From: Fidelibacterota bacterium
GTDB lineage: Bacteria > Fidelibacterota > Marinisomatia > Marinisomatales > UBA2128
Assembly: GCA_046861645.1 (NCBI GenBank)
Contig: JBHHUM010000030.1
Coordinates: 1 to 25,358, forward strand
DNA: 25,358 nucleotides
Direction: 5' to 3'
A program made the position numbers and the translations under genes. Position 1 is the stretch's first letter. Every line of letters starts with the position of its first letter. A model generated the notes under the pieces. It was not told where the DNA came from, did no database searches, and saw nothing but the letters and a program-made list of their open reading frames with translations. Shown here piece after piece: positions 5,601 to 23,201 of the stretch.

Positions 5601-5998
5601 TTAGGCTCATAAAACAAACGATGGATAGGAATACGTTCGGCAAAGAGGATATGCTCATCAGAAGAAAATGCAGCGATGACTTCCTGAATGTCACTCCTAA
5701 ACTCTGGTAGGGTAATCTCATAAAACCTGTTGAGGAAAATATCCCCATCTTTATCGAAATCTGTCGCAGTTGGTAACCAGGGTTGAATAGCTACTGCCTC
5801 CATTTCCTGCAACAATTGGTCAAAGGAATCAAAACCAGTAATAGTACCAGCCTTGGCCTCTTTTAATTCAATTCTACCAAGTTCATTTTTGAAATAAACA
5901 CGAAACCTATCAGTATGAAAAGCACCATTCGGATTGGCAGTAAAAGCAAAGCTTAACAACATAAAATTAAGGGTGCCTATTGAAAAAAAGTTATTCAT
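2690..5998 (-). CDS. Secreted S8 (subtilisin-like) serine peptidase with FG-GAP-like propeller and T9SS type-A CTD
   Basis: Catalytic motifs VGIVDTG (Asp), HGTHVAG (His), ASAGN (oxyanion Asn) and GTSMSSP (Ser). N-terminal propeptide, eight DxDxDGxxEI-type repeats, CTD NYPNPFNP...KKMMYLK. ATG 5998 is preferred over GTG 6007 because AGGTGA lies 5 nt upstream. Confidence 0.93.
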   Translation of the reverse strand: MNNFFSIGTLNFMLLSFAFTANPNGAFHTDRFRVYFKNELGRIELKEAKAGTITGFDSFDQLLQEMEAVAIQPWLPTATDFDKDGDIFLNRFYEITLPEFRSDIQEVIAAFSSDEHILFAERIPIHRLFYEPNDPKYSQQWYIPQVTIEQAWDMWDIASGDNPGDESIVVGIVDTGCDWDHPDLIGNLWQNLDEDYDGDGVTVEYVSGVWQLDSGDLNGVDDDGDGYVDNLIGWDIGEDDNDPVGPPGQGTYGGNMHGTHVAGVPGAATNNSLGMASEGWSIKHMPVKCAYDDGTAIVGGYNGILFAAKAGANIINCSWGGGGPSGGEQAVINNVYNNYGTIIIASAGNGDDFGNEEYAAHYPSSYDNVISVTALGQNDVWHHWATYHESVDFAAPGENILSTVYATVSGGYQSWDGTSMSSPVVSGCYALLWSYFPEADRDWIEQRLLETADSIIYDVNTEDYLQGRLGVGRPDVFAAIASGVFPNLSVQSYTLQLTEDDGDGVLNPGESAKMRIVLANAEGWATATNVSATLSSTSMYINIIDDTGTFPDIIGGGTGVNIVDRFEFSITADAPPSSLPLTLTITAGDPPADYEEVEVFDLELTLNQLGFPFTAGGSIYSSPLIYDIDLDGSDEIVFGTDDYTIYALGSDGSEKWSFTTGNQVRGSAAVADLEGDGDLEIIICSKDQKCYILNGDGSLQAEYTANGFLMTTPVLRDLDGDNDLEIIFGGFGKYLYVIHHDGSDFDSFPILVDESIMVAPAVGDIDDDGSDEIVVGTWSNHVWGFESDGSVMSGFPYAAGNRINGDPALVDLNGDGTLEIIVGSDDNYLHVINSDGSQRFTVNGSGDVRGAPAIEDIDNDGDWEIFFGSNIKKVFGIDHDGNSLPGWPQASTSAFKSAPVFGDLNGSGFPAIVAANSNGALYAWDTEGTLLDNFPISLSGTVEGSFSIADIDADGDLEIAVGASSTLSVIDIKTSAGSGEYWSMFRLNSTRSGNRSDFEMTVAVDRPLVPEKFVVYANYPNPFNPSTTIRYELPEQTFVTITIHDLLGRSIRTLTKETQVAGYRAVVWDGLDNKGQVVSSGIYLLRVKAGQKQVIKKMMYLK
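3119..4120 (-). repeat. Eight FG-GAP/VCBS-like protein repeats (probable beta-propeller)
   Basis: DIDLDGSDEIV, DLEGDGDLEII, DLDGDNDLEII, DIDDDGSDEIV, DLNGDGTLEII, DIDNDGDWEIF, DLNGSGFPAIV and DIDADGDLEIA at roughly 44-47 aa spacing. Confidence 0.85.
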
Positions 5999-6051
5999 CC
6001 AACTCACCTTTCTATTTGTGTAATTTCCCCTGAACAGAGGCGACCCAGCAA

Positions 6052-6118: not shown

Positions 6119-8965
6119 TTATTTGACAAGAATCAGCTTCTTTGCTGAAGAATGTTTTTCTGTCTCAATCCGATAAATATAGACTCCTGTAGCTAGATCA
6201 CTGGCATCCAGATGATAACTATACCGACCGGCAGGAAGATTCTCATTTACTAAGATATGAACCAATCGTCCAGTGACATCGTACAATTCTAATTTGACGT
6301 GTTGCCTGGTCGGCAGATCGAAAGGAATGAAGGTTACGGGATTGAACGGATTGGGATAGTTTTGCCTAAGAGCAAACTCTTTTGGAAGCCCATTATCTTG
6401 CTGATTGATGGTTACTGCTGCATCCACTTTTGCCCGAATCATAAGGTCACCGCTGTATCCCAGATCAGCAATTGAGCCCCAATCATCACCGGGAATCTGG
6501 TAGTAACTGACATCATCCGGACTGTCGGTATCCAGACCGAGCTGTGGCGACAGAGAAGTCTCACCCCAACCAACGTAAAATCCTCCATCGGAGATCACAA
6601 TATCTGCCGTGGAAACATCTTTTTCGTTCCAACCTTCAATAACGCTGGAGAAAAGCAGGGTAGTGCCAATCTGACTACCGGGCATACCCCCTTCACCATC
6701 ATCGGCCCATAAGTAAATCCACGACAAACCACCATCCCCGGTGGCATAGTATTTCAATGAGACGAGGGTTACGGGTTCTTCAGGAACGAAATGTACCGCA
6801 TAGAAACCACCATCTCCAAGAGAGGTGACACTGCTTTCTGCGGTTCCATCATCATAGGACATCTCATAGATAGTTGCCGCTTCTGGTGTGGCTGTTACTT
6901 CATTGGAGAAGTCACTTTCCACCTCATCGGGTGTCCCGTAGTTATATACAGCCGTTACTACATAATAATAGGTTGTACCATTCGTAACAAAAGGATCTTC
7001 AAAGAGTACATCCGGCCATAATTCGCCATACCAGAGAGGATCAGTATAGTCTCCTCCCTCGGTATGTCTATAGATATTGTAAGCTATATTTACTTCACCA
7101 CCAGCTCCTATCACAGCCCGAATTCCCCATTCTCCATCCGGCAGACTATTCGCTTCAGCAACGGATTGCCAAGTCGACCAACTATCAAAATTGACATAAC
7201 TGTGTCCAGAGGGTACGGCTGATTCATCCAAGGGTGCATACATGATGGAGGCATCCTCGAAAGTGCCAGCATCAAAAGCAATAACAAAATCACCTTCAAA
7301 TACCCAACCATCAGCACTAAGGTCAATATCATTCCAGGATCCAACTGTAAGAGAGATATCTTTTGAATAAAGAGAGACATCTTCTATTAGACCCCCGAAG
7401 GCATCAAAACCATAGATTGTGGTAGTAGTACCAGTATTACTATCATAACCATAAATGCGAGCCGTCTCAACTGTAGCACCGAAGGGAGCATTGAAATATT
7501 CACCTGCCATGAATAGTCCATCTGTAGAGTAAATTCCATTTGTGAAAAAGCTGCCACTTCCATCATCATTATCGTAACCAATTTCGCCACCAGCACCTAC
7601 ACCCACTGGATCCCAATTCAGCGTCACTAAAGCATCTCCAGCCACTGCGATCAAATTTTCCGGCACTGGCAACTCTGTGGTCAGACTCTTTTTCCAGATA
7701 TGGACATCATCAATGAAGAAGCCTTCACCGTTTCCACCATCATCATTATCATCAATGATTGCTACCCAACGAAGCCGGATATCCAGCCCGGCAAAATCGG
7801 AAAGATCTAACATAACATTTCCATTAAATGGTTCACCAGGATCGTAGGTATCCCATCCGGAACCTCCGGGACGAGTTATATCGCCGTAGTCGTAGAAAAC
7901 ATCTGTCCAGGCTAATCCTGAGGCCGACATTACAATCTGATCGTCAGCGTTATCATAAAGCAGGTTTCCTTGATCACTATTGTCCACCGATAAATTATCT
8001 ATAAAGAATCCGATCAGTCCAGGTTCATCGGATGTTGACCATGCAGGATCTGAACCAAAAGCAAACCTGAGGATAACGGTTTCTCCAGCATAACTGTCCA
8101 GATTAAAACTGGCATCCTCCCAGCCGCTACCATATCCTCCCCAACCGGGAGAAGAGCAAGATTCTCCGTTATAAAACCAACCATAACAGCTTGTGCTGGT
8201 ATAAGATGGAGAACCCTCAAGGATTTCCCAGGTAGTTCCTCCGTCAGTTGAGATTCTGACGTTGGCTGCGTCCCATCCATCTATCAGACACCCCTGGATA
8301 TCCTGTGGTGCACCTGTGTACTCTTCAATAGCATATTGCAACTTGAAAGATAGACTGGTGTTTCCCGATGAAGGGATAGTAATCTCGGGAGAATCGAGAA
8401 ATTGTAACCACCCGTTAGTATAACCATTCAAGGTTTCATCACCGCACCACCAGGAGTTACCTTCAAAGGCATTAAAGGAAGATGTATGCCAGGGAGAACT
8501 GCTTAAATCCGCAACATCCACACTATAGTAGTCTTCCAAGAAATTGTCACCGTCACCATCAAAATCCACAAAATCGCACCATAAGTCGAAATTAAAATGA
8601 ATGCTCTCATTCTCTTCCAGACTTGGCAGCGTAACAACGGGAGTAATGAGCGATGAAATCGTGCTGTAATTATCATCATCAATCCAGGCACTATGTGTAG
8701 GACTACTGGAACTCTGCTCTGTTAATTCCCACCCTGATTCAAAAGTCCAACCGGCTGTTCCAGATTCTAAATCATCGAAAAAGATTGTCGTAGTATCTCT
8801 GTTGGATATTCGAGAGGAATTCAATATTCCCTGCCAATTTGAATCACGGTCAGCTTCGACTGTTGGTCTGGCCTGCTCATGAACCTGAAGATCTTTGGCA
8901 TTCAGGGAAGCAAATTTCAACAGGAAAATGGAAAGTAAAACTAATCCCGGTATTATTCTTTTCAT
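6119..8965 (-). CDS. T9SS type-A CTD multidomain adhesin-like protein (MAM/immune-inhibitor-A-like jelly rolls, FN3, two YDDG-type beta-sandwiches)
   Basis: SD GAGGTG and signal peptide. Jelly-roll motifs (FFDDLESG, LDSYAGETVILRF, GFFIDD), FN3 motifs (PENLIAVAGDALVTLNWD; VTNGTTYYYVVTAVY) and CTD LRQNYPNPFNP...KKLILVK. No catalytic motif seen. Confidence 0.82.
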   Translation of the reverse strand: MKRIIPGLVLLSIFLLKFASLNAKDLQVHEQARPTVEADRDSNWQGILNSSRISNRDTTTIFFDDLESGTAGWTFESGWELTEQSSSSPTHSAWIDDDNYSTISSLITPVVTLPSLEENESIHFNFDLWCDFVDFDGDGDNFLEDYYSVDVADLSSSPWHTSSFNAFEGNSWWCGDETLNGYTNGWLQFLDSPEITIPSSGNTSLSFKLQYAIEEYTGAPQDIQGCLIDGWDAANVRISTDGGTTWEILEGSPSYTSTSCYGWFYNGESCSSPGWGGYGSGWEDASFNLDSYAGETVILRFAFGSDPAWSTSDEPGLIGFFIDNLSVDNSDQGNLLYDNADDQIVMSASGLAWTDVFYDYGDITRPGGSGWDTYDPGEPFNGNVMLDLSDFAGLDIRLRWVAIIDDNDDGGNGEGFFIDDVHIWKKSLTTELPVPENLIAVAGDALVTLNWDPVGVGAGGEIGYDNDDGSGSFFTNGIYSTDGLFMAGEYFNAPFGATVETARIYGYDSNTGTTTTIYGFDAFGGLIEDVSLYSKDISLTVGSWNDIDLSADGWVFEGDFVIAFDAGTFEDASIMYAPLDESAVPSGHSYVNFDSWSTWQSVAEANSLPDGEWGIRAVIGAGGEVNIAYNIYRHTEGGDYTDPLWYGELWPDVLFEDPFVTNGTTYYYVVTAVYNYGTPDEVESDFSNEVTATPEAATIYEMSYDDGTAESSVTSLGDGGFYAVHFVPEEPVTLVSLKYYATGDGGLSWIYLWADDGEGGMPGSQIGTTLLFSSVIEGWNEKDVSTADIVISDGGFYVGWGETSLSPQLGLDTDSPDDVSYYQIPGDDWGSIADLGYSGDLMIRAKVDAAVTINQQDNGLPKEFALRQNYPNPFNPVTFIPFDLPTRQHVKLELYDVTGRLVHILVNENLPAGRYSYHLDASDLATGVYIYRIETEKHSSAKKLILVK

Positions 8966-9087: not shown

Positions 9088-11268
9088 TCAGCGGACGATG
9101 GCAAATTTCCCTACGCGCTGCTTCCCCCCTGTTTCAACGATATAAATGTAGAGCCCGGGAGCCACCTCAGGTCCATCTTGATCAAGACCAGTACGTAGAT
9201 TCCACCATAGATTTCCTTCGTAGGGATCACTGTGCTTCAGGCTGGTGACCAATTCACCAGAAATGGTGTAGATAAGTATTCGACACTCGTTTGGCAGTCG
9301 GGTAAAACGAAGTAGTCGACTATCTGCTGTTTCGTTGAAGGCTGAATGTACAATATAAGGATTTGGTACCACACGAATTAGATCCAGATCATTTTCAGTA
9401 ACTTGGTGGGATTTACCAAACTCTCCCATATCCACAATCCAGGCATCTCCATCGGTAAAAAACTTCTCCATCTTAACAATAACATATTCCCCCTCCGACC
9501 AGGGATAATAAGGTATCCAAGGACTATCGTTCACACCATCACCATTATCATCGATAAAGCTGTAGGGTTCTACTCCAGAATTAACAGCTACCGCTTTCCA
9601 GGCCATGGCTCGCTGCCTGACGATAGCTCCTTCTACATAGCTGACTGAAGAGGACCAATCAGGCAATCCTGGAATTAAATCTTCTATATTGAAATCAAGA
9701 GAGAGTGAGAAAGAAGATACCGCAGTTAAAACACTATCAATTTCCAGTGTATCACCTTGAAATACCAGGGGCTCATTCCGTGTCCACTCACAATCTCCAA
9801 ATCCTTCAGAAGTCAATGGAGGTGGAAAGGAATATCCCTGGTCTTGATGTGTCAATCCTACCTTACGTCCAGTAGTCAGATTTGTAACTCTGATGGGTAC
9901 TTTAGTGAAGAAAGAACTACAGTAGAAAGCTTTTACTGAATCAGTAGGTGAGGAAAGCAGTTCAATTTTATAATCAAAATTCAACCGACGAGCAAACGCT
10001 GCTGAATTAAAGTAAATCAGTGTCCCAACTAAGGCATCAATGGTAGTACTGTCAGCATTCCAGATAAGAGTATCTATTAAAGCCCCCTGGTCTTCAGGAA
10101 CAAAGTCTTGAATATTCTGGAATCGAAAACGAATACCATCCAGTAATTTACTATCGCGATTTACCTCAGTAATTGATCGATAAAGGGGAGTTAAAATCTC
10201 AAACTCATTTTCAATAACACCGGGAAGATCTAAAAGAGAATCTATCTGGGACTCCGAAAGAGTATCGATACTATATGTATGCTCGTATTCAACTGGTTCC
10301 TGGCTGACGCTGTCGGTAATCTCATACACATAAACTACTGGATTCTCACAGGCCATTCCTTCGCCCGCTGTACTCCCTAAATCAGCCTGTATCTCAAATC
10401 GTAAGATGGCATCAGAAAGGCTATCACGATCGACAATGATATAGGAAATATTGCCTGTGCCAATTGTCCCTTCCTGTCGGATGAAAAAGGATTCAATATC
10501 CTCTTCGGATGGAAAGGAAACGTTACTGGCGTAGTACCCAGGAATTACCGTCATAAAATTTAAGTCGTTCTGGTTTGTCCCTTTAGGGCATTCCAGGCTG
10601 GGGTAACCTTGAGTAGGATTAGGTTTGCCATTCAACGAATCTGGTCCACTGTAATGGCCTGGGTTAGAGGGTGACCAAGTAGTATCGGCATACCATGTAG
10701 AATCTTCTTCATTCCAGAGATACTCCACCGTAAACGTCCTTAAACCCATATCATAAGCTACTACTGAATACGTGTATTCCACTCCATCTGTTACATTAGA
10801 ATCCACAAAGGTGTGTTGCAAGCCTGTATTACTACCCAGGTCAAATCGTGGATTAAGTGGATCAGGACCTGAAATCTCAATTTCCCGGTGGGGATCATTA
10901 GCAGCACAATCAGGATAATAAAGACAAAACTCCCTATCTTCCTCTGCGGTAAGATCAAACTGAGCGTAAGGTTTCCAACCAATGAATTTACCTTCATAAT
11001 CAAAAAGCATCTGATCGGGACCCCCCCAGGTGTTTCCACCATCAGTACTCTTGTAAATTCTGTAGCCCTCGAAATCAGCATAACTGGTCAGTGAATCTAT
11101 TGATGCCTCGGCATTACTATCCCATGCCAGGAAGACCCTATTATGACGAGTTGTAGCAAAGAGTCGTGGCGTATTCGGAGCTGAAAATCCGTTCTCTGCA
11201 TCCAAATTAGTTATTATCCCTGTCAAACAGTACAATAAGGCAATGATACTATGGGAACACATTTTCAT
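9088..11268 (-). CDS. Exported protein B with FN3-like domain, CBM5/12-like module and variant T9SS-like CTD
   Basis: Signal-like N-terminus ending LDA. FN3-like region VFLAWD...DFEGYRIYKSTDGGNTW...VTDGVEYTYSVVAYD. C-terminus IRVVPNPY...FTRLP...APGLYIY...GKFAIVR. Paralogous to 12321-15512. The start could be 11262. Confidence 0.8.
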   Translation of the reverse strand: MKMCSHSIIALLYCLTGIITNLDAENGFSAPNTPRLFATTRHNRVFLAWDSNAEASIDSLTSYADFEGYRIYKSTDGGNTWGGPDQMLFDYEGKFIGWKPYAQFDLTAEEDREFCLYYPDCAANDPHREIEISGPDPLNPRFDLGSNTGLQHTFVDSNVTDGVEYTYSVVAYDMGLRTFTVEYLWNEEDSTWYADTTWSPSNPGHYSGPDSLNGKPNPTQGYPSLECPKGTNQNDLNFMTVIPGYYASNVSFPSEEDIESFFIRQEGTIGTGNISYIIVDRDSLSDAILRFEIQADLGSTAGEGMACENPVVYVYEITDSVSQEPVEYEHTYSIDTLSESQIDSLLDLPGVIENEFEILTPLYRSITEVNRDSKLLDGIRFRFQNIQDFVPEDQGALIDTLIWNADSTTIDALVGTLIYFNSAAFARRLNFDYKIELLSSPTDSVKAFYCSSFFTKVPIRVTNLTTGRKVGLTHQDQGYSFPPPLTSEGFGDCEWTRNEPLVFQGDTLEIDSVLTAVSSFSLSLDFNIEDLIPGLPDWSSSVSYVEGAIVRQRAMAWKAVAVNSGVEPYSFIDDNGDGVNDSPWIPYYPWSEGEYVIVKMEKFFTDGDAWIVDMGEFGKSHQVTENDLDLIRVVPNPYIVHSAFNETADSRLLRFTRLPNECRILIYTISGELVTSLKHSDPYEGNLWWNLRTGLDQDGPEVAPGLYIYIVETGGKQRVGKFAIVR

Positions 11269-11292
11269 CGTGGCAACACTCAGTTAATCCGA

Positions 11293-12324
11293 TTAGAATT
11301 CCAGACCAATACTGACCTGATGCATTAATTTTAATATATTGTAATCGACTAAAGCATAGTCCACTCTAGCTGATAGGCGACCTAATTTGATTAGGAGACC
11401 ACCACCAGCAGCAAATCCAGCTGTGTCGTGTCCAATGTTAGCTCCCGCTCGGATAAAAGCCATTTCTTTGAAAGAATATTCGATACCGGCATTGCCGTGG
11501 ATGGTATAATCAGTAGGATTCGTGCCATCCAGTGCGATTGTCAAACGGTGCGTGGAATTTTTGATAGTAGCTTCAGGTGAGGGACCCATGATATCTTTCT
11601 GCAAGCCTAAGCGAAACATCAAAGGTAGGGGAAAACTTTCCGTCACTTTACTGAGACGTCCTTCCACATCCAGACTGTCTGCCACGGGAATCTGTAAACC
11701 TTTCCCACTGTACTGAACTTCAGGACCAAAATTAGAAACACTCATACCCAACACAATGCCAAACACACCCGTATTAAAATTTGACCCAACATCAAAAGCA
11801 ACAGATTGCATGTTAGTGGTATAAATTTCATCACGAATATAATTGAGGGTAATCCCAACCTTCAACCGGTCCGTCATTCTGCGGGCATAAGCCAGACGAA
11901 AAGACATTGAGATGACATGATAATCCTCTCCCGTTCCGTTTGAAAAATCCTCGGTAGTTACTCCAATGGGACCGGAGTCGAGATAAAAGAGGTTGATGCC
12001 AAAGTAGTCGTTAGCCGACAGACGCTTTCCATAGGACAATACATTATAAGTAATATCGGCAATATAGTTTGTTTGGGACAAGTAAACCTCCGACCCTTGG
12101 AGATAAGCTACAGCAGCGGGATTGTAAGGTATGGCACTGACACCTTGCCCTACCGCTACGAAGGTGCCTCCCATTCCCGCAGCCCGGGTACTCGTACCTA
12201 ATTTTAACCAATTGCCCGCTGTAGTCGCCACTTTGGTTACGACTTCGGGTATATCTCTATATTGAGCTGGTAATAAACTCAACAGGACTAGACTTAGAAC
12301 TATTGTTCGATACAGTTTTCTCAT
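11293..12324 (-). CDS. PorV/PorQ-family (FadL-like) outer-membrane beta-barrel
   Basis: Likely start is ATG 12324, overlapping the upstream TGA (ATGA), which gives a signal peptide. Family motifs WLKLGTSTRAAGMG and IPYNPAAVA, alternating beta-strands, C-terminal VSIGLEF (terminal Phe). 343 aa. Confidence 0.88.
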   Translation of the reverse strand: MRKLYRTIVLSLVLLSLLPAQYRDIPEVVTKVATTAGNWLKLGTSTRAAGMGGTFVAVGQGVSAIPYNPAAVAYLQGSEVYLSQTNYIADITYNVLSYGKRLSANDYFGINLFYLDSGPIGVTTEDFSNGTGEDYHVISMSFRLAYARRMTDRLKVGITLNYIRDEIYTTNMQSVAFDVGSNFNTGVFGIVLGMSVSNFGPEVQYSGKGLQIPVADSLDVEGRLSKVTESFPLPLMFRLGLQKDIMGPSPEATIKNSTHRLTIALDGTNPTDYTIHGNAGIEYSFKEMAFIRAGANIGHDTAGFAAGGGLLIKLGRLSARVDYALVDYNILKLMHQVSIGLEF

Positions 12325-15300
12325 CTTACCACCGCAAATTTCCCTATCTGTTTTTGACTCCCGGACTCCACTACATAGATATAGAGTCCCGGGCTGATTT
12401 CCTGATTGTTTACAGTACGCATATCCCAAAAATAATTGCCATTATCTGGATCAGAATGCTTCAGGGTAGTCACTTTCTCTCCCGTTACCGTAAAAACTGT
12501 AATTTTGCACTCCTCCGGGAGGTTGGTAAATCGAATTTGTCGCAAGTACTCTGTCTCAGAAAAACCTGAACGCTGCATGTAGGGATTGGGGACCACTTTA
12601 ATTTTACTTAAGTCACTCTGTGGAGGTGATCCAGGACGGACCACTACAAAATTTGCATCTAAAACAGTTGTCCCCCTGGAATTTTCTATGGAAGCATATC
12701 CAGCAGGTGCTGACCAGTCATCTGGATTGGCAAAGCCAGGAATAGTATCCGGAATAAATCCCCCACTGCCATCAGGATACCATTCCACCACAAACGGAGC
12801 TTCCACGCCCATATCGTAGGCAGTAACCGAGTAAGTGTATTCCATTCCATCGACAACATTGGAGTCAATGAATACATAATTGTATTCTTTACCATCAATG
12901 ATCACAGGTTGAGGTAAACGAATATTATCAAAACCAGTATCTCTACCTAGACTGAACCAGGGTGCTTGTGGATCAGGCCCACTGATGCTTCGATTCCGAT
13001 TTTCCCCGACGGAGCAGGTATCATTTTCGTATACACAATGTACGGAATCTTCATAGGCACTTAAATCAAATTGAGCATAAGGCTGCCAACCAACAAGAAC
13101 ATCACTAATATCATATATCCGTTTTTCATTAGAGCCCCAGGTAATGCCTCCATCTCGACTGCGATAGATCTTATAACCCTCAAAATCAGCATAACTCGTT
13201 ACCACATCCTTTGAACTTTCAGCAGTATCGTCCCAATACAGGATCACCTGACTGTGATCCACCTCAGCATGGACATTTGGCCTGGTAGGGGGAGTGTAAC
13301 CCTGGTAATGGGAATTATACATAATCTGGGCAAAAGTAGCATTCTTAATCAGATCTTCGTGATCTTCACCAAAAATAATAGAGAAAGAAAAGGGTACTTC
13401 TTCACCAACAGCAAGATCAAACGGGCCACAGCTCATAATTAAAACACAATCCAATCCTTCTTCACCGCTCAGGAAGGCATCTTCCCTCTCCAATCCTTCT
13501 AAGGAGTCGAAGTGAGGATTTAATTCAGAACCAAGATCGGTATCAGGGTTTTTGGTATGGAAGAACCAGGCGTGTTCATTCTCACTTAGGTTTACTGTAT
13601 CACCCTGAATGACCTTTAATAAGATTTCTTCCTTGTTCCTGGCTTGAGGCCTACCCTGATCACCTGCACAACAGTTATTGTTACTCTCTCTACTTACTAC
13701 ACCCGGTCGATTATACCAATCAAACCAGTGCCAATCGGTCATTTTCAGCGGTTCACCAGGAAAAATATCTGGAAAACCATCCAAGTCTAAATCCACCTCA
13801 TCCGTAGCCAGTGGAGAATCAAGAAGTTGTGTGGCAACAATACCTAGATTTGTAGCAGGTCCACTAATTCCATCATAATCATAGATAAGAGCCATACTGA
13901 TACGGAGTTCCTCACCACCAACCTCAGGACATCCATTTGGAAAAAATTCTGAGGATTCCTCACTTAAACAGTCGATATACTCCATGAAATCATCGGCATT
14001 AGTATGGATGGCACTACTAAAACCATTAATATCACCCATAGCAGCGTCAGCATCCATATAGAAACCCAGGGATATATCCTTGTAATCAAATCCTCGTCCA
14101 CGGTTGAGCTTAGTACCATCGGGCATAATCATTCCTTCTCCACTGAGCTGCACCCCGTTTTCATCGAGAATGGGAATCCGATTGCCACTATTGTCCCTTT
14201 CAAAAGCAGACCAATCACCACTTTCGTTTCTGACTCGTACAGTCACAAACATGATATCCTCTGCGTAAGAAACACCATAGGAATGGGCTTCGGCCATTAC
14301 CCGCAGTCCTAGTGGGTAACCGGTCTGTTCATATTCATTATTGGTATTAACCATATTGGCACGGTGTGCCCATCGATCGTCAAATTCCATATAGACATCG
14401 GTATCGGATATGAACCTTCCCGGTACCACCTTCCAACAATCTGGGTCCTTCCTCGACCCGCTACAATTGGTGATGTCCTCCTCATCCCATAATTCAGGCT
14501 TATCCCCAAAATAATCTTCTGCCCACCACCCTGGCCAGAAAGATTCAAAATTACCCGTTTCATCACTATAAGCCGTCGGCCAGGTCTGAGAATAATTACT
14601 GTGTGCCAGAAGCGGATAGGTATCCCCAGCATCAGTGAAGGGAGTATCGCTGAAGATATCTCCAGCTGTTATATCAGTATTATGAGTGTTAATTCGGGCA
14701 TTGGTTGAAGCATGCCAATCAGTATTTTTAGAGGGACTCCAGCGGGTAAACCACGATTCGGATACAGTTGCACCATAATAAAAATATTCATCATCCGTTG
14801 TCCATTCTTCCTTATCAGACCCGTATTCATATACATCAAAATCATCCGTTCTTTCCTTAAGCTTGGGGCGTAAAGCCCAGGGACGGATTAAGCCAATTTT
14901 ACTCACCGATCTATTAGGATCAGTTTCACCTGCTACACTGATAAATATTTTCCCTTGCTCATCATCAATTCCCCACTGAAAGGAATCCGTGATATCGTCC
15001 AAAGATGATTTTTTGGCAAGACTATCAGGATACCAGGTACCTCCATCATTCTCAGCATCGAAAACGATACCGACGAAGTTAGTATCTCCATCTTCAAACC
15101 AGGCTTGAAATGCATCCTCAGACTCCCATGTCTGACGGATAACAACACCTCCACTCTCAATCGTTTCGTATATCAACCAGGTAAAACGAGATGAGTAGGC
15201 TTGTCCGGGTACACCTGCCAGGAAGCTTACTGCCGGCAAGTAGGAATAATCACCCCACAAGCCAGCAGGATGTTCATCCCAGTTAATGAAATTTCCATAG

Positions 15301-15512
15301 TTGGATACTGCATTTTTTACCTTCCCCTGCAAAAGAAATCCCTTTGCCCTATCGTTCATAGGATTGGTAGGAAAAGGATAATCTCCTATTTTCAATACTG
15401 GTCTGGGACTATAACTACCCAGGGGTTCACCTGATTTTCCAGGTCCCTGTCGTTCCGCAGCAGAAAGCAGAATAGTAGCCATGAATAATATCCCTGTAGT
15501 TTTAATCTTCAT
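12321..15512 (-). CDS. Exported protein A: large acidic N-terminal domain, FN3-like domain and variant T9SS-like CTD
   Basis: ATG 15512, 4 nt after the TBDR stop, gives a signal peptide (MKIKTTGILFMATILLSA). FN3-like region VILYWD...DFEGYKIYRSRDGGITW...YTYSVTAYD. C-terminus IKVVPNPY...FTNLP...SPGLYIY...GKFAVVR. Confidence 0.82.
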   Translation of the reverse strand: MKIKTTGILFMATILLSAAERQGPGKSGEPLGSYSPRPVLKIGDYPFPTNPMNDRAKGFLLQGKVKNAVSNYGNFINWDEHPAGLWGDYSYLPAVSFLAGVPGQAYSSRFTWLIYETIESGGVVIRQTWESEDAFQAWFEDGDTNFVGIVFDAENDGGTWYPDSLAKKSSLDDITDSFQWGIDDEQGKIFISVAGETDPNRSVSKIGLIRPWALRPKLKERTDDFDVYEYGSDKEEWTTDDEYFYYGATVSESWFTRWSPSKNTDWHASTNARINTHNTDITAGDIFSDTPFTDAGDTYPLLAHSNYSQTWPTAYSDETGNFESFWPGWWAEDYFGDKPELWDEEDITNCSGSRKDPDCWKVVPGRFISDTDVYMEFDDRWAHRANMVNTNNEYEQTGYPLGLRVMAEAHSYGVSYAEDIMFVTVRVRNESGDWSAFERDNSGNRIPILDENGVQLSGEGMIMPDGTKLNRGRGFDYKDISLGFYMDADAAMGDINGFSSAIHTNADDFMEYIDCLSEESSEFFPNGCPEVGGEELRISMALIYDYDGISGPATNLGIVATQLLDSPLATDEVDLDLDGFPDIFPGEPLKMTDWHWFDWYNRPGVVSRESNNNCCAGDQGRPQARNKEEILLKVIQGDTVNLSENEHAWFFHTKNPDTDLGSELNPHFDSLEGLEREDAFLSGEEGLDCVLIMSCGPFDLAVGEEVPFSFSIIFGEDHEDLIKNATFAQIMYNSHYQGYTPPTRPNVHAEVDHSQVILYWDDTAESSKDVVTSYADFEGYKIYRSRDGGITWGSNEKRIYDISDVLVGWQPYAQFDLSAYEDSVHCVYENDTCSVGENRNRSISGPDPQAPWFSLGRDTGFDNIRLPQPVIIDGKEYNYVFIDSNVVDGMEYTYSVTAYDMGVEAPFVVEWYPDGSGGFIPDTIPGFANPDDWSAPAGYASIENSRGTTVLDANFVVVRPGSPPQSDLSKIKVVPNPYMQRSGFSETEYLRQIRFTNLPEECKITVFTVTGEKVTTLKHSDPDNGNYFWDMRTVNNQEISPGLYIYVVESGSQKQIGKFAVVR

Positions 15513-15516
15513 CAGT

Positions 15517-18500
15517 TTAATCAAACTCAATTTTCACAAAAAAATTAATCTCCCGAGGAGTGGAAAAATACCAGGGTTGATCAAAGAATGAATTAGAGAG
15601 ATAAGCTCTTACACCAGCACCATTGGGATCAGATCCGGGTAGACCTACATAATTAGTATAAAAACTACCTGGATCATCTGGTTTTCCCGTGAGTGGCCAA
15701 ATATCTATCGCATTCCTGAGATCGAAAAGGTTGAATATATTCAATCCCAGTAAGATGCTCTGTTTCCCGTAACTGATCCCTTTGGAAAAAGAAAGATTAA
15801 AGTTTATGTAATCGGGTGATCGTTTTGAGTACTGATTTTTAATATCCAGAGTCGGTTCACGATCCCCCTTTTTATAGATGTAGGGCGTATAGGGGTATCC
15901 TGATTGAAAGAAGCCGGTAATACCGGAACGAATTCCGAAAGGTAAAAACGTGTACAGTGAAAGGGTTAGATCATGAGTACGGTCGTAAGGCATCAGGAAT
16001 TCCTGGGAGGGGGCATCAACAAAGACTGTTCCTTCGGCAGCCCAGTCGTGTGCTTTAATAGCTTTATCAACCGAAAAAGTGTATTGAAGCAAACCACTTA
16101 ATCCTCTACCTCGACGCTCTAATGTGAAATCTACTCCCTTAGCTCCCCCATAATCTCCGTTATCAAAAACCTGATATTCATAGACACCTGAGCGACTGTT
16201 TTTAAATGTCAACCATTGATCTATATCTTTTACCCAGGCAGCAATACTGTAGCTCCACTGTCTTCCGACTTGAACATTATAACCCAACGCATAAGATTGT
16301 GTCCGTTGAGCGCCCATGGTAGCATTGCCAAGTCTCCCTTCACTTTCCTGGAAAAGTTCCTCCGGATCCTCCAGACGATTCGTGTTCAAATAAACATTCA
16401 TATAAATTGGAGTCTGATAGTAAACCCCGTAATTAAAGGTAAAGGTCGATCGGTCAGTAATAATATGACTAATTCCTATCCGGGGACTAAATTTGTAGAA
16501 CCAGCGAGCATCGGTGAAAAGAACTTTTTGATGAGCCAATCCAGCTAATTCGCTTACTTCTTCTTCCTCATCCCAAACTCCGTTCTCATTTTCATCGGAA
16601 TAATACCACGGTTTACCCGGAGACATTTTTCCTTCTGGATCAGCCCAAATCTGGGTTCTATAGTTAACGCCATCAACTCGCACCCCGGCATTGATTACCA
16701 TCCATGGTACTTCAAAGGTACTCTGGATATAAGCTGAGAGCTCAACCGGCTCGCGATAGTCATCCCACTTACCATTCTTATTGGCATCGGTGAAGGCTTC
16801 TCCTTCATCCCAACGCCCGTTCCCTTCCCCGGGATCTGCCACTACATAATCCACGTCCGTTGGCATAAGCCCGTCCGGCCCAGTATCCTCCCAGAATTCT
16901 GCAAAAGTCTGGATGAATGCTCCCGTACCCAACCAGGGTTCCTTCACTTCATAAAAGTTAAGCCGATGTGATTTCAGATCAATACCGCTTCGCAGTTTAA
17001 ACTCATTCGTAACCTGTGTAGTAATATCAAACCGAAGCTCATTAGTAACCGCTTTAGAAGTTGAATAGAAACGGTCATGACCCCCGAAAACATGGCCCTC
17101 CAACCAACTCCAACCCCCCGCGGCTGAAGGTAAATAGTAGTTGTAGTCATCTGGCTCACCCCCATACAAGAGTACCTCTAAAAGAGAATCGGGATAATTT
17201 TCACCATAAGGATCCTGAGCATAATATTGCCAGATATGAAAAAAATCAAAAAAGTTCTGATAATTTTCATACATCTCTGGTGCTAACCAGTAAGAGCCGT
17301 CCCTTTTTTGCAATGCTTCCACCAATTCAGGACCATCCCAGGTACCATCTTCGTCCAGGTCTATCCAGGGTTCACCCTCTTCCCAGATACCATTCCCATT
17401 CATATCTGTAAATTCTTCAGCTACCTCCCAGTTATAAACCCCCGGTTTAGCTCCCAGGTACCAGCCACTCCGTTCATCTTTCATCGTATAGAAGAGGGTA
17501 TCACCATTCTCAGAGATGGAATAGGGTACTACATAGGGATCATAGGGATCTGACATGCCCCGGTCTGGCCCGGCAGAATGTCTCCACTCGTACCAGTCCG
17601 GATATCCATCATTATCACTGTCATACCAACGAACTCCCTGAAACTGATCCTGAACAAAGCGAGCAGCGCGGAGGGTGTAAAATGTTCGGCTGGAGAGGGA
17701 ATGGTTCAGTTCAATGGTAAATCGCTGTGTATCTCGGAATAATTCGTTCTGGCCTTGATCCCAGTAGAGATACCGAGGGTTGAAACCCTTACGGTGAGCC
17801 TTAAGGTTCCAGAAGGAAAAGTTGAACCGAAGTTTAGAAGAAAATATGTAAGTAAGTTTCCCAAAGATATCCTGTGTTTTATCACTACCAAATCCTCTAA
17901 AACCCGCTACTTGATCCCAAGGTTGTACCATATTATTACGGTTTTCGTTAAGAATCTTCTGATAATCCGGGTGATTGACATCTGGAGGATCCAGGTAATG
18001 TTCCTGCCCGGGTAACAGTTTGTAAATGATATTGTCAAATTCATAAACCCGGTAGGAGTCACTATTGGTAAACTGACCTGAGAACCAGTATTTTAGATTC
18101 CTGATACCAAGTAGGGTACCTCCAAAACCTATATTATAATCGTGGTAACCCCGCAAATCGTCGTATTTCGATCCTAGGAGCGCTCCCACTAAACTGGTTT
18201 CGTACTTGAATCGATACACAAAATCTTCTGTACCTGAGTTGGTATGCATATTGGATACAGCCGACATGGCATCACCATACTCAGCATTAAAACCGCCCGG
18301 TTGCCAATCAAATTCCTTCACTGCAAATAGATTTAAACGGGTTCCATTCCCGATACCACCATATATAGGATTGCGGATGTAAAGTCCATCGATCATATAG
18401 GCAATTTCACCAGAGCGACCTCCTCGTACGTGAATCTCTTCCAGGCCCCGCTCTTCATGATCTGGAATCCCTTCCCGGCGGCTCTCTACCTTGATAACTC

Positions 18501-18966
18501 CTGATTGCAGTGTATATAATTCATTCAGATCACGCATAGGCAAAGAAGCAATGGCTTCACTTTCTATCGTTACTTTTTTAGATGTGGAAGTTTTTTCCAC
18601 CATGGGTCTTTCGGCTATGACATTTACTTCCTCCCCAATTTGCAGCTCTATAGGCAGCTTAAAATTCAACCACACTGATTGATCCATCTTGACCACTACA
18701 TCCGACACCACCTGTCGTTGATATCCCATCATCATGACATTTACATCATAGGTACCAACCGGTACATTAAGAATGATATAGTCTCCGTTGACATCTGCTA
18801 CGGCACCCAACGAGAGATCCTGAATGAATACTTGAGCACCGGGTAAGGCAGTACCTTCCATATCCGTCACTCGACCACGAATGGTACCATCTGTTCCGGC
18901 TAATAGTAACGATCCAGAAAAAATAAGTACTCCTATCCTGGTAACTGTATTATTCAAGCTCTTCAT
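15517..18966 (-). CDS. TonB-dependent receptor with N-terminal carboxypeptidase-regulatory-like domain and acidic loop insertions
   Basis: N-terminal GTIRGRVTD...LPGAQV...GDYIILNVPVGTY, plug motifs HVRGGRSGEIAYMIDG and GGFNAEYG, barrel motifs INAGVRVD, FSPRIGIS and LGLNIFNLFD, end PREINFFVKIEFD. ATG 18966 has SD GGGTGA. Confidence 0.93.
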   Translation of the reverse strand: MKSLNNTVTRIGVLIFSGSLLLAGTDGTIRGRVTDMEGTALPGAQVFIQDLSLGAVADVNGDYIILNVPVGTYDVNVMMMGYQRQVVSDVVVKMDQSVWLNFKLPIELQIGEEVNVIAERPMVEKTSTSKKVTIESEAIASLPMRDLNELYTLQSGVIKVESRREGIPDHEERGLEEIHVRGGRSGEIAYMIDGLYIRNPIYGGIGNGTRLNLFAVKEFDWQPGGFNAEYGDAMSAVSNMHTNSGTEDFVYRFKYETSLVGALLGSKYDDLRGYHDYNIGFGGTLLGIRNLKYWFSGQFTNSDSYRVYEFDNIIYKLLPGQEHYLDPPDVNHPDYQKILNENRNNMVQPWDQVAGFRGFGSDKTQDIFGKLTYIFSSKLRFNFSFWNLKAHRKGFNPRYLYWDQGQNELFRDTQRFTIELNHSLSSRTFYTLRAARFVQDQFQGVRWYDSDNDGYPDWYEWRHSAGPDRGMSDPYDPYVVPYSISENGDTLFYTMKDERSGWYLGAKPGVYNWEVAEEFTDMNGNGIWEEGEPWIDLDEDGTWDGPELVEALQKRDGSYWLAPEMYENYQNFFDFFHIWQYYAQDPYGENYPDSLLEVLLYGGEPDDYNYYLPSAAGGWSWLEGHVFGGHDRFYSTSKAVTNELRFDITTQVTNEFKLRSGIDLKSHRLNFYEVKEPWLGTGAFIQTFAEFWEDTGPDGLMPTDVDYVVADPGEGNGRWDEGEAFTDANKNGKWDDYREPVELSAYIQSTFEVPWMVINAGVRVDGVNYRTQIWADPEGKMSPGKPWYYSDENENGVWDEEEEVSELAGLAHQKVLFTDARWFYKFSPRIGISHIITDRSTFTFNYGVYYQTPIYMNVYLNTNRLEDPEELFQESEGRLGNATMGAQRTQSYALGYNVQVGRQWSYSIAAWVKDIDQWLTFKNSRSGVYEYQVFDNGDYGGAKGVDFTLERRGRGLSGLLQYTFSVDKAIKAHDWAAEGTVFVDAPSQEFLMPYDRTHDLTLSLYTFLPFGIRSGITGFFQSGYPYTPYIYKKGDREPTLDIKNQYSKRSPDYINFNLSFSKGISYGKQSILLGLNIFNLFDLRNAIDIWPLTGKPDDPGSFYTNYVGLPGSDPNGAGVRAYLSNSFFDQPWYFSTPREINFFVKIEFD

Positions 18967-18998
18967 TCTGAAATTCACCCGGACAAAGATATTCACTA

Positions 18999-21074
18999 TC
19001 AGTCATGTAAATGTAATTCCACGCGTTGAAAGCCAGATGTTCGATGGAAGATGTAAGGATCATTTTCAAATACAGATTGGGCACCGAGATTTTTTAACTT
19101 TATCTTTTCTGGTTGACTTAATGCCCGAGAAGCATTTCCAATCCCCGAAGCCGTTGCCCTACCAAGCTCCCAACGAGATATCACTGTCCATTGCTCGGGA
19201 GATCCAGTCATTTCACTCCACCGTACAGACAAATCATCTCTGACGATACCTAATCCTCTGGCAAGCCAGGTCTCATTCCTTTCACCATATTCTACTCCAC
19301 TCCCGATAATGATCATGGTCAGGGTACGTGTAATTTTGAAACAGTGAGTTAAAGTAGTATCAGCGCCGGGACAATCATCTATGGATGCCGCCGGCCAGCC
19401 ATTATCCTGGTAACAAATCACCACACCATCTTCCTCGTAACCACGTACCTTTTTAGCGGGAACAATCAGGGTATCTGATTCAACTTCAAAACGTTTCTCT
19501 ATTTTATATATGGCAACTTCTGTGGTATCAAAATATTCTTCTTCAACTAGTTCACCATCGCGGAGTTGACCATTAGGAGTATAATACAGTATCTCTTCAT
19601 TAAACACATCCCGGTGCCAGAAACCACTTTCTAATTCTGAATCACTCCAATAATAACCATAAGGCTCAAAAAAACTGGGTTGGGTCACCTGATAGACATG
19701 ATCATCTATGCGGAACATATGATAGTCGTACTCTTTACCATCATCCCATTCTGACTTACTAATAAAATATTCTCCATCGGCGCTACCCTCCAGTAGATGA
19801 GCAATAATTTCGTTAGTGAAGAGGACTACCTGGGAATCGATATCAGCAACTTCTACAATTTTATCATCTACAAAAAAGACTTCCTTAATTAAATCGAAAT
19901 AGGTATCACCCCATCTGGTCACCAGGGAATCGCCAACTTCGATAGATTCCAAAATCAACGGATTTTCCACATCTGCCCAGGAAACAAGGAGAGTACTGGG
20001 GGAGTTATTCATAACAAATAATCCTTCTCCCTCATCCCACTCACCATTTCCATTTTGATCTCGATAGATTTCAGCTTCGTCCAACTGCCCGTTCCCAATA
20101 TCATTGAACGGTTCCCCTTCATCATACTTACCGTTATTGTTGGAATCAGTAAATTCTTCAGCATCATCCCATGAATCGTTACAATTACGATCTTGAAACG
20201 GTTCATTCAAATCGTACTCACCATTTTCATCCAAATCCAGGAATGCTTCCCTGGGATCCCAAATACCATTACCAAGATCTTCATTCACCTCAGCTGGGTC
20301 CCAGCTGCCATTGTCGTTACAATCGGTGTTAACACGAAACATGAGGGAATCATCACCTAATTGAGTTCTATTAAATGTAAACGTGTATGCAAAAGTCAGG
20401 GGGATGTCCGCCGAGTAATAATAGGTCGTATCTGTCCATTCCGCAGAGTCAACAAACATAACACCACTATTTATCAGGGGAGTATCTATGACTGCGGCGT
20501 AGGAGATTATATCTATGGTATCCTGGTATAAAACAGTCTGGGTTTCCTGAATCTCTTCAGAGTTTACCGGTCGGTACCTCTGCAAATCTACTTGTGGTTC
20601 GGTATCCCAATCCATCCGTTCCAGGTTACGGAATCTTTCCGAAAAGATAGTAACCGAATCTTCTAATACCTGTCCAAATATGGTTAGGGTATCAATGACT
20701 CTTCGTTGGGTTGCGGTGTAATCATTGGGCGTCACTTCCACAAGAAAATCCGGGAAAGTCTGTAGCGTAAGAAGAGGGGGAACTTCACCATAAAGAGAAA
20801 TATACTCCTGGTAAGAAAGATTTATACGATTATTGGAACGGGTGAATCTGTAGAACTCAGCCGACAGATCTTGCCCAAAATTATAAAAATATTCATCAAT
20901 ATCCCCGGTGAAACCATTACCCACCTGATCTTCACCTAACGTGTTTTGTGGTAAAATTTCTGGGGAAGATTTCTCGAATGATTCTTCACAGGCTGTGAAA
21001 ATGAGGAAGAAAAGAGTTAATTTCAGGATCAAAAAGAGTTCAAGCTTTTTGTTTAATACTCCTATTGTTGACAT
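18999..21074 (-). CDS. Acidic lipoprotein with Ca-binding-like tandem repeats and C-terminal DUF3108-like motif
   Basis: Hydrophobic stretch ending in lipobox IFTA-C. Seven 14-15 aa acidic repeats. C-terminal IVPA...CFKITRT...ETWLARGLGIVR. The start is ambiguous (ATG 21074 or 21110). The gene ends in in-frame TGA-TAG-TGA. Confidence 0.75.
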   Translation of the reverse strand: MSTIGVLNKKLELFLILKLTLFFLIFTACEESFEKSSPEILPQNTLGEDQVGNGFTGDIDEYFYNFGQDLSAEFYRFTRSNNRINLSYQEYISLYGEVPPLLTLQTFPDFLVEVTPNDYTATQRRVIDTLTIFGQVLEDSVTIFSERFRNLERMDWDTEPQVDLQRYRPVNSEEIQETQTVLYQDTIDIISYAAVIDTPLINSGVMFVDSAEWTDTTYYYSADIPLTFAYTFTFNRTQLGDDSLMFRVNTDCNDNGSWDPAEVNEDLGNGIWDPREAFLDLDENGEYDLNEPFQDRNCNDSWDDAEEFTDSNNNGKYDEGEPFNDIGNGQLDEAEIYRDQNGNGEWDEGEGLFVMNNSPSTLLVSWADVENPLILESIEVGDSLVTRWGDTYFDLIKEVFFVDDKIVEVADIDSQVVLFTNEIIAHLLEGSADGEYFISKSEWDDGKEYDYHMFRIDDHVYQVTQPSFFEPYGYYWSDSELESGFWHRDVFNEEILYYTPNGQLRDGELVEEEYFDTTEVAIYKIEKRFEVESDTLIVPAKKVRGYEEDGVVICYQDNGWPAASIDDCPGADTTLTHCFKITRTLTMIIIGSGVEYGERNETWLARGLGIVRDDLSVRWSEMTGSPEQWTVISRWELGRATASGIGNASRALSQPEKIKLKNLGAQSVFENDPYIFHRTSGFQRVELHLHD
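20025..20324 (-). repeat. Seven tandem 14-15 aa repeats D-x-(N/D)-x-N-G-x-(W/Y)-D-x-x-E-x-F
   Basis: DCNDNGSWDPAEVNE / DLGNGIWDPREAFL / DLDENGEYDLNEPFQ / DRNCNDSWDDAEEFT / DSNNNGKYDEGEPFN / DIGNGQLDEAEIYR / DQNGNGEWDEGE. Confidence 0.9.
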
Positions 21075-21203: not shown

Positions 21204-23201
21204 CTACTTCAGTAGTACCATCTTACGCGTCTCACTTCTACCATCAATTGACAATCGATAGAAATAGACGCCGGCACTCTGTTCAGCACCATTCCAGATA
21301 ACATCATATTTCCCGGCGTTCAACTCATCATTGATCAACGTCTGCACTTCCCGGCCAAGCAGGTCATAAACTATCAACCGTACTGGGGCTCTTCCCTCCA
21401 AGCTATAATTGATCACGGTTTGAGGATTGAACGGATTAGGGAAATTCTGGCTCAGATGAAACTGAACCGGAACCCCATTATCACCAGAAATGCTGGTCGT
21501 TCCCCAATTGACCTTAGCGAACCAGAGCCGCTGTTTGTAGTCTTCAGGACCTCCAGGGGGGGATACTGTCTCGGTTTCGTAATCGGGTGCCATGTAAACC
21601 ACATAACACTCTTCGTTAGTAGCCCGGGGTGAGAGATGGGGATGGATTTCATCGGCGTCCAGCGTCATGGTATTTGTGATGTTCATGGGATCAGACCATG
21701 TTACTCCACCATCTTCAGAACGCACTACATACACATCAAAATTCATACGCTGTGAAGAAGTATCAGAGTAAGCTTCCCAAGTACCGTAGATGATATTCTC
21801 ATCCTCGATACTGAATGCTGAAGAAGGAAAAATCCGCTGGTAATTGGGGGAATCGTACTCAAACAGATAGGTAAGATCCATGGATCCCATGAAACTGGCT
21901 TGCCATCCCATGGGATTACTCACCGGATCATCATTCCAAAGGTGATACATCCCACACCCCTCGATAAAGTAGATGAAACCTCCTCCCGAAGGGATCACCG
22001 GAGTGAAAATATGCAGTGTCCCCTCTGAATCAACCTTCAGGTCAAAGTCATAAGGAATATATGCTTCTGTAATTTCGGTGGAATCGGTATCAGAGGCGAC
22101 GTAGAATTCAGGAAAGAGATCATTGTCATCGAAATAGCTGCTCAGCCATTCAGAGGGAATGTAATAGAATGGGGTACCATTATGCCCGGTTTCGCTCCAG
22201 GTTAAACCGTTATCTTCGGTCTTGCGGAGCATGAACGTGTGTGCCGTATCAGCAGGAGAACCCCCTCCGGTGATAACTCCATCGAAATAACTGATCACAG
22301 CGGAATAGCCCACCCCACTCTCATTGATATCGATAATCGCCGAACTGGTATAAGTACCGCTGGCAGTCTCTTTTTCAAACTCTTCACCGGAATAGAGTTC
22401 CACAGCATCATCGAAGGCAAAGTACCCAGCCTGATGGAAATTAGAACGGTAGATATAGCGTACAGAGGCCAGTTCATTGGCCGCACTACCGCTCCAGCCA
22501 GAGTAAGTGACATTCAACACCGGTGTACCCGTCGCATCATGAGTTACCACTGGGCAACCTACCCAGTTGTCTTCCGGGTCACAGGGAGTTGGATTGCAAC
22601 CATTGTTAATATCCAGGGGAGGTGTAAAAAATGAACCTCCCCCGTAGAAAAATTGATCCCAGGTATAAAGGGGGCGACCCCCATACTGTCCTCCACCGGC
22701 TCCACTGGTATATTCATTCCATACCAGGTAGGGATAATCCGTCCCCCCCACTACACTGGGGTAACGAGCCATAGTCTCACCGGGACTGCTGAGGTTCAAG
22801 CCCGAATAGATATCATCCCACGACTCACCATTCGCAGAAAAAGCAGCACCCAATTGCCCTGATAAAGATTCATCGGCGATATACCACTGACGATAACACC
22901 AGGTAAATCCATAATCCGGCTCCCAATGGAGGGGGTTGGTGACTCCCAGCAGCATACCATATCCATTTCTGGAGGAATCCACCATGACTGACATAACATC
23001 CACATCCCGGGAACTGGGAGAGTGAATGATGGAGGGACGGGGTAGTTGATTGACACCATACTCAATGGCATCTCCTTCCCTAGGGAAAACGTAGTGGCTT
23101 CTCAGAACCTTGTGGCTTATTTTCGTAGCTGCAGGTGCATCAGCAAAAGTAATAGCAACCAAAAGGGTAAATGTCAATAATCCTATAACTTTCGTTTTCA
23201 T
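21204..23201 (-). CDS. T9SS type-A CTD protein with BNR/Asp-box repeats (probable beta-propeller)
   Basis: SD AAGGAG and signal peptide. Asp-box-like FSANGESW, KTEDNGLTW and RSEDGGVTW. CTD LSQNFPNPFNP...AGVYFYRL...RKMVLLK. Confidence 0.83.
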   Translation of the reverse strand: MKTKVIGLLTFTLLVAITFADAPAATKISHKVLRSHYVFPREGDAIEYGVNQLPRPSIIHSPSSRDVDVMSVMVDSSRNGYGMLLGVTNPLHWEPDYGFTWCYRQWYIADESLSGQLGAAFSANGESWDDIYSGLNLSSPGETMARYPSVVGGTDYPYLVWNEYTSGAGGGQYGGRPLYTWDQFFYGGGSFFTPPLDINNGCNPTPCDPEDNWVGCPVVTHDATGTPVLNVTYSGWSGSAANELASVRYIYRSNFHQAGYFAFDDAVELYSGEEFEKETASGTYTSSAIIDINESGVGYSAVISYFDGVITGGGSPADTAHTFMLRKTEDNGLTWSETGHNGTPFYYIPSEWLSSYFDDNDLFPEFYVASDTDSTEITEAYIPYDFDLKVDSEGTLHIFTPVIPSGGGFIYFIEGCGMYHLWNDDPVSNPMGWQASFMGSMDLTYLFEYDSPNYQRIFPSSAFSIEDENIIYGTWEAYSDTSSQRMNFDVYVVRSEDGGVTWSDPMNITNTMTLDADEIHPHLSPRATNEECYVVYMAPDYETETVSPPGGPEDYKQRLWFAKVNWGTTSISGDNGVPVQFHLSQNFPNPFNPQTVINYSLEGRAPVRLIVYDLLGREVQTLINDELNAGKYDVIWNGAEQSAGVYFYRLSIDGRSETRKMVLLK

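Follow-up and report, generated by a model that had tools for sequence, protein, structure and literature searches.

A conserved receptor, secretion-tailed partner and barrel unit at a TonB-dependent receptor locus of a Fidelibacterota bacterium

What, if anything, takes the place of SusD, the lid for substrate capture known from Bacteroides, at a TonB-dependent receptor whose locus codes for no SusD? The question is raised by five closely spaced genes at positions 9088-21074 of contig JBHHUM010000030.1 (25,358 nucleotides, the whole of which was analysed and is called the window) from a marine Fidelibacterota bacterium (assembly GCA_046861645.1). They code for a predicted lipoprotein, a TonB-dependent receptor, a large protein (partner A), a barrel of the PorV/PorQ family and a second large protein (partner B), both partners ending in a tail related to type IX secretion system (T9SS) tails. 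The unit is real, conserved and uncharacterised. Its conserved core consists of three genes, for the receptor, partner A and the barrel; the lipoprotein gene upstream of the receptor and the gene for partner B are lineage add-ons outside that core. We are inclined to the view that A and B are barrel-anchored capture proteins which serve the receptor in place of SusD. In Marinimicrobia and relatives TonB receptors are annotated and SusD is mostly absent (PF07980, the one SusD model searched phylum-wide, in 12 of 61 phylum genomes), and for these organisms the unit offers a testable answer to how polymers are captured.

Gene order and its conservation

The five open reading frames (ORFs) are co-oriented and were read directly from the sequence, in the order of transcription:

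18999..21074, minus strand: predicted lipoprotein, 691 aa, Cys29 after FTA, beta-sheet model
15517..18966, minus strand: TonB-dependent receptor, 1149 aa, PF13620 at E 2e-16, Plug 24.4 bits (cut-off 23.9)
12321..15512, minus strand: partner A, 1063 aa, modelled as supersandwich, Fn3-like domain and PorZ-type C-terminal domain
11293..12324, minus strand: PorV/PorQ-family (FadL-type) barrel, 343 aa, a locus-specific paralogue, NF033709 169.4 bits
9088..11268, minus strand: partner B, 726 aa, with an Fn3-like domain, a middle region without assigned family and a tail of the same type as that of A

Lipoprotein and receptor genes are separated by 32 nt, receptor and A by 4 nt, and barrel and B by 24 nt, while A and the barrel overlap in an ATGA. 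Signal peptides were assigned by eye only. The initial annotation had listed these genes and gaps, and the ORF coordinates and the direct reading of the junctions agree with it. It had also held that SusD is missing here: none of the 12 window proteins matches a Pfam SusD family, and the lipoprotein, for which a SusD fold had been considered, is modelled as a beta-sheet of another kind. Its picture of a fixed module of five genes did not hold, as the unit is a three-gene core with optional genes; likewise the five genes do fill 9088-21074, but the conserved locus reaches past those coordinates.

Partner A was matched at E<=1e-30 in 25 of the 61 phylum genomes. Around the best matches 20 loci were fetched, 17 of which show receptor, A and barrel in this order; one breaks off at a contig end after receptor and A, and two are orphans. 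A wider scan was seeded with the Fn3 motif because the tail alignment was too diverse. Among its best 78 loci, 54 could be evaluated on both sides, a sample that leans to close relatives of A and in which kin are not independent. A receptor upstream and a barrel downstream were found in 34, a receptor only in five, a barrel only in two (partial or B matches) and neither in 13. The neighbour rule is strict and visibly missed units at L091 and L093, so that 34 of 54 is a lower bound. Names in the titles of the locus records include Marinimicrobia, KSB1, Ignavibacteria, Calditrichia, Eisenbacteria, WOR-3 and Bacteroidota, and the linkage across genomes and phyla foreseen in the initial annotation is thereby supported. 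A literature search returned no title or abstract opening describing the unit, with most subscription journals outside its range.

The order also recurs within the genome of the window, where receptor, partner and barrel stand intact six times (contigs C120, C115 twice, C141, C145 and C165), with variants on C111, C168 and C170; ten PorV-family genes score above cut-off. On C111 (7608-21225) there are two receptor-partner pairs, with one barrel and small lipoproteins between them. Partners of the unit are 700-1250 aa long, mainly beta, and carry a secretion tail. Eight of the 13 ORFs with a tail of the A/B kind (variant tail) lie directly behind a receptor, against 0 of the 90 ORFs with the ordinary type A tail (26 of the 90 at a contig end). 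A barrel follows within two genes for 8 of the 13, against 2 of the 90 type A tail ORFs that precede a barrel-like gene. The variant-tail profile was trained on 12 of the 13 ORFs, which makes the class partly circular but not the neighbour test. Chance adjacency is excluded because the order of receptor and variant tail recurs in these proportions.

Distances of receptor, partner and barrel correlate over 52 triads (Spearman 0.72-0.88), and in 44 of the 52 the closest triad by receptor ranks first to third by partner. These covarying distances show inheritance as a unit, not contact. A single ORF of 2121 aa at L121, taken at first sight for a receptor-A fusion, was rejected as an artefact; it crosses a scaffold gap of 100 N.

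Partners, receptor and barrel

The model of partner A has a predicted local distance difference test score (pLDDT) of 74.6 and a predicted template modelling score (pTM) of 0.75. It places a beta-supersandwich with large insertions at about residues 50-735, followed by an Fn3-like domain and a C-terminal domain of the last 97 aa. Best match of the supersandwich is the N-domain of 1lf6 (Z 17.3, root-mean-square deviation (rmsd) 2.8, 231 aligned residues). Further matches are N-terminal sandwich domains of glucoamylase, related hydrolases and phosphorylases, with mutarotases and YidC at Z about 11. Foldseek with the whole model gave generic Fn3/Ig matches only, those to Fn3 supporting the Fn3-like domain. 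Neither A nor B matches a Pfam family, and the named homologues of A are labelled Marinimicrobia or Fidelibacterota; an Atlas search returned unnamed clusters only, for A as for the lipoprotein.

Such matches, which include many glycoside hydrolase N-domains as well as aldose epimerases (Z about 11), and many invariant polar residues in the A family alignment would suit an enzyme at the surface, either mutarotase-like or a supersandwich catalyst of another kind, by which substrate is processed before import and for which the barrel is a mere anchor. We consider this improbable. The matches cover the N-terminal sandwich of the hydrolases and not their catalytic barrels, at 7-15% identity; A is modelled without a catalytic barrel and matches no Pfam or NCBIfam enzyme family; and the alignment is shallow (60-86% identity), so that invariance says little. 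A and B probably act as non-catalytic partners in substrate capture.

Partner A ends in GKFAVVR and partner B in GKFAIVR, the tails being 97-100 aa long. The modelled tail of A superposes on PorZ (5m11, residues 680-776; Z 12.0, rmsd 2.1, 87 aligned), and a profile of 25 tails run against the PDB had PorZ as its best match (E 1.3e-5) and PorU as the next (E 0.015). Neither PorZ nor PorU loses its tail, and PorQ, a barrel, anchors PorZ independently of PorV (accessible text of PMC10947112 and PMC11285876). By profile and model the A/B tail is PorZ-like and matches the uncleaved type that PorQ anchors. The profile matched 5,883 clusters of 50% identity at E<=1e-10, among which ordinary tails and repeats may be included. 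The type B tail model CHU_C has no match on A or B; 6 of 14 B orthologues have CHU_C matches below cut-off (E 8e-4 to 0.2).

A and B are 42% identical in their Fn3-like domains and 54% in their tails. Concerted evolution of the two tails was considered and rejected, since identity within a genome (54-57%) does not exceed that between genomes. Among the loci fetched, partner B was found only in the class of the window. Arrays of 2-9 PKD repeats, which are typical of surface stalks, occur in 7 of the 14 B orthologues, and a weak CBM5/12 match, below cut-off, in 4 of 14.

The receptor consists of an N-terminal extension (CarboxypepD_reg), a plug and a barrel with acidic loop repeats. In the Pfam search its Plug match is barely above cut-off and PF00593, the barrel family, is not matched; the barrel domain is assigned by homology to paralogues of the same genome (25-36% identical), several of which match PF00593. 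With plug and homology-based barrel it is classed as a TonB-dependent receptor, and two TonB_C genes are present in the genome. Against the SusC model TIGR04056 it scores 39.3 bits (cut-off 368) and the TIGR04057 signature is absent, while a true SusC/SusD pair of the same genome, which served as positive control, scores 509.9 bits with the signature. By these sequence models the receptor does not belong to the SusC/RagA subfamily.

Almost the whole of the lipoprotein model (pLDDT 84.2, pTM 0.61) consists of strands. Its best fold match is BDI_3050 (4fvs; Z 10.4, rmsd 5.2, 174 aligned), with LolA/LolB-like entries ranking lower, and the model describes an open beta-sheet of the LolA/YmcC/BDI_3050 type with insertions, not a SusD fold. 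Foldseek gave nothing at E<=0.001, and no SusD entry appeared in either fold search. Asp and Glu make up 19.2% of the protein. Among the loci fetched it is confined to the class of the window; in other classes the interval between the upstream gene and the receptor holds no lipoprotein. Acidic DxNxNG repeats are common to the receptor (residues 449-791, five copies) and the lipoprotein (251-350, four copies); these are probably calcium-binding loops. An unrelated gene on contig C58 of the genome has similar repeats.

The barrel belongs to the PorV/PorQ family (169.4 bits against a cut-off of 90 for NF033709) and matches the PorV structure 6h3i (E 7e-7). It fails both equivalog models, for PorV (NF033710, 68 of 250 bits) and PorQ (NF033711, 81.9 of 220), and is neither PorV nor PorQ proper. 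The best PorV candidate of the genome lies on contig C113 with 196 bits, and the barrels of the modules score 43-86. A dedicated barrel, as first supposed, is in this sense upheld. PorV itself proved the poorer analogy: PorQ-PorZ or PorP/SprF, with permanent anchoring, fit better than a PorV shuttle. The PorP/SprF family PF11751 has no match on the window barrel, its sole match in the genome being elsewhere and below cut-off.

In related genomes the barrel was matched at E<=1e-70 in 14 of 26. All four genomes of the genus of the window have one copy, and 8 of the 10 other matching genomes have two, which in the loci fetched are ordered A-barrel-B-barrel, one behind each partner. Within a genome the two proteins share 99-100% identity, comparisons between genomes mostly give 54-63%, and paired copies are sisters in 10 of 10 genomes (quick version of the tree). 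Assembly can homogenise repeats; some genomes at least have a genuine duplication, as the copies at L003 differ synonymously at 23 codons and non-synonymously at 5, and those at L056, on a 583-kb contig, are 94.9% identical over 1242 nt. Nor is the window misassembled, since three genus relatives and one further genome have the same A-barrel-B order without a second barrel. The pattern would fit one barrel per partner, with an identical barrel serving both tails. A second barrel stands behind B at L003, L006, L035, L058, L062, L068, L077, L097, L120 and L121, B being flanked there by a direct repeat of about 1.1 kb. L038 and L052, without B and with one barrel, nest among the two-barrel loci, as would fit deletion between the repeats.

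Proposed role and competing readings

The genome codes for SprA (609.8 bits) and PorU (684.8 bits), that is, for the translocon and the sortase of a T9SS, and SprA is present in 61 of 61 phylum genomes. A PorZ-like gene (177 bits) lies elsewhere in the genome, which holds about 90 type A tail proteins beside SprA, PorU, PorZ-like and PorV-like genes. SprA is kept even in the 0.9-1.1 Mb genomes of the order without a match to A. It is very likely that A and B are exported through the SprA translocon. They would then be kept uncleaved and held at the surface by the barrel of the locus, which, by analogy, likely binds the tail as PorQ binds PorZ. A would be the core partner and B a second arm that is optional and often borne on a PKD stalk; in the genus of the window B would share the barrel of A. 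That A works with the neighbouring receptor seems a reasonable expectation; it is doubtful that A touches or caps it. Of this picture, gene order and its conservation, the tail type, the barrel family, the folds of A and the lipoprotein (as models) and the presence of SprA and PorU are shown, and the remaining steps are inferred.

Export could also be pictured with the barrel itself as the channel for A and B, without SprA, by analogy with Slam, which exports TbpB beside TbpA. The tight pairing of barrel and partner genes would suit this, as would the missing Gld motor genes: GldL, GldM and GldN gave no match in a genome that is 94% complete, in a search in which no control genome matched either and GldK was not included. 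We regard this channel as very improbable, given that the barrel is FadL-type, with the lumen of that type filled by an N-terminal tail, that the partners have T9SS-type tails and that every phylum genome has SprA.

A barrel devoted to the biogenesis of receptor or A, either as a private shuttle from SprA or as a BamG-like pedestal rather than a permanent anchor, draws on several precedents. PorV shuttles cargo, and cognate barrels have been proposed to collect cargo at the translocon (accessible text of PMC9143113); BamG, a FadL-family barrel, docks a surface lipoprotein and is a pedestal for an extracellular subunit (accessible text of PMC12611786). In the genome of the window, one receptor-barrel pair even lacks a partner. 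The tail, though, resembles the uncleaved PorZ class, and a near-identical second barrel behind B is easier to square with one barrel per partner than with a catalytic shuttle. A biogenesis role has little probability in our judgement, and anchoring of A and B by the barrel is retained.

A further reading grants the tethering and separates the functions: A and B would be co-transcribed with the receptor and serve as adhesins, particle-binding proteins or a scaffold (SusE/F-like or SprB/SprF-like), the receptor working alone. The PKD arrays on half of the B orthologues, the clade of A relatives without receptor or barrel, and the acidic repeats of calcium-binding type in lipoprotein and receptor speak for it. 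On the other side, A stands directly behind the receptor across phyla, where ordinary secreted proteins of the genome never do, and every receptor paralogue retains its own diverged partner. Separate functions are held to be unlikely, if the most serious of the alternatives, and capture by A and B on behalf of the receptor remains the preferred reading.

Several observations weigh against that preferred reading. The linkage of receptor, partner and barrel is not absolute, as seen from a clade of orphan A proteins and from contig C168 (692-4461), where the receptor is followed directly by a barrel without a partner; one of the partners on C111 has no barrel behind it. Of the 13 evaluable loci with neither neighbour, L091 is an artefact of the rule, and most of the others belong to a sister clade of A from Marinimicrobia, with unrelated genes around them. 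Two partners meet one barrel in the genus of the window, the Gld motor genes were not found, and the genome retains its one true SusC/SusD pair (SusD-like_2 was not found in it). Co-duplication alone predicts the correlated distances, and the supersandwich fold, also present in YidC and mutarotases, shows no function. The orphan A proteins (L048-L051, L053, L055, L057, L059, L064, L065, L073, L004 and L005) are full length with intact tails; the one at L049 lies behind a threonine dehydratase gene, and five sampled assemblies carry both an orphan and a receptor-linked A.

Compared with known systems, the unit would be a new combination of known parts, with a layout like SusC/SusD and anchoring like PorQ-PorZ or PorP/SprF. 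It shares with SusC/SusD (RagA/RagB) and the utilisomes a receptor with a carboxypeptidase-like N-terminal extension, a large partner directly behind it and many copies among degradation genes; there the partner is a helical lipoprotein, whereas here it is a beta protein with a secretion tail, the receptor is not a SusC and a barrel forms the third gene. With PorQ-PorZ (and PorV-PorU) of the Porphyromonas gingivalis attachment complex it has in common the barrel family and a tail that matches PorZ by profile and fold. PorZ has propellers and A and B have none, and the pairs described here are multi-copy and receptor-linked. Like SprB-SprF and PG1035-PorP, it has one barrel gene beside each cargo gene and many pairs per genome; in those systems type B cargo is anchored, tail intact, by cognate PorP/SprF barrels (accessible text of PMC9143113). 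PorP/SprF differ in barrel family (PF11751) and tail class, and the accessible text of PMC9143113 gives no link to a TonB receptor. BamG-BamH offers a FadL-family barrel as pedestal beside a larger one (accessible text of PMC12611786); there the partner, BamH, is a lipoprotein and BamA the large barrel, where the present unit has a T9SS-tailed partner and, as large barrel, an importer.

Boldest among the readings is the one in which A forms a lid. A three-part importer, and with it a third way of making a substrate-capturing lid for a TonB receptor, would then consist of a T9SS-exported protein of about 1,000 residues, with a tail of a distinct PorZ-like class, held one-to-one by its own barrel and docked on the receptor; it would be the chief machinery of uptake in Marinimicrobia and in other non-Bacteroidia phyla of the Fibrobacterota-Chlorobiota-Bacteroidota group, with export through SprA without the Gld motor. 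We offer this version as speculative and doubtful. The unit can serve as a marker for utilisation loci that tools based on SusC/SusD would miss, and it would widen a rule known from PorQ-PorZ and PorP/SprF, that each uncleaved cargo has one anchoring barrel, to a large, unnamed class of tails. A natural experiment is provided by the locus of the window, whose relatives differ in the number of barrels (one or two) and in the presence of B. Particular to this locus are a larger, protease-linked extent, a lipoprotein and a B that are optional, and a barrel that is duplicated in relatives.

Flanking genes and possible cargo

Further features of the window are:

21204..23201, minus strand: type A T9SS tail protein with weak BNR repeats, 665 aa, TIGR04183 38.5 bits (cut-off 23), BNR E 0.011
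6119..8965, minus strand: protein with InhA-like MAM domain and type A tail, 948 aa, PF20773 E 3.3e-11, PF18962 E 4.6e-12
2690..6007, minus strand: subtilase (S8) with FG-GAP propeller and type A tail, 1105 aa, PF00082 E 1e-41
1725-2603, minus strand: type A tail protein, 292 aa, in the same run of co-oriented genes
738-1688, minus strand: TPR protein, 316 aa, in the same run of co-oriented genes
1-541, minus strand: 5' part of a 16S rRNA gene, ended by the contig end, RF00177 483.5 bits

The flanking genes for the upstream type A protein, the MAM protein and the subtilase are conserved as well as the core. In most loci phylum-wide, the gene next upstream of the lipoprotein or receptor gene is an orthologue of that for the 665-aa protein, the MAM protein follows the barrel or B in most loci, and a subtilase stands behind the MAM protein in 22 of the 23 loci with a visible next gene (one contig counted twice). 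The catalytic motifs of the subtilase are intact (D177, H260, S423). No glycosidase is annotated in the window. On account of this absence and of the co-conserved subtilase, peptides or glycopeptides are tentatively named as the likeliest cargo; the fold of A and the weak carbohydrate-module matches of B point to glycans instead. Paralogous triads of the genome lie among genes for starch or other sugars, with alpha-amylase and CBM20 genes as neighbours.

Promoter and terminator scans of the window gave chance levels (46 against 42.2 and 20 against 15.1, respectively). As in the window, many loci from other phyla (L081-L113) have the gene of a type A tail protein immediately upstream of the receptor. 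Modules of several families are accompanied by a pair of small membrane proteins, located upstream at L008-L014 and L019-L021 and, in the genome of the window, on C115 (7914-9047). The C115 pair matches Pfam Gate/nucleoside recognition and is presumably SpmA/SpmB-like.

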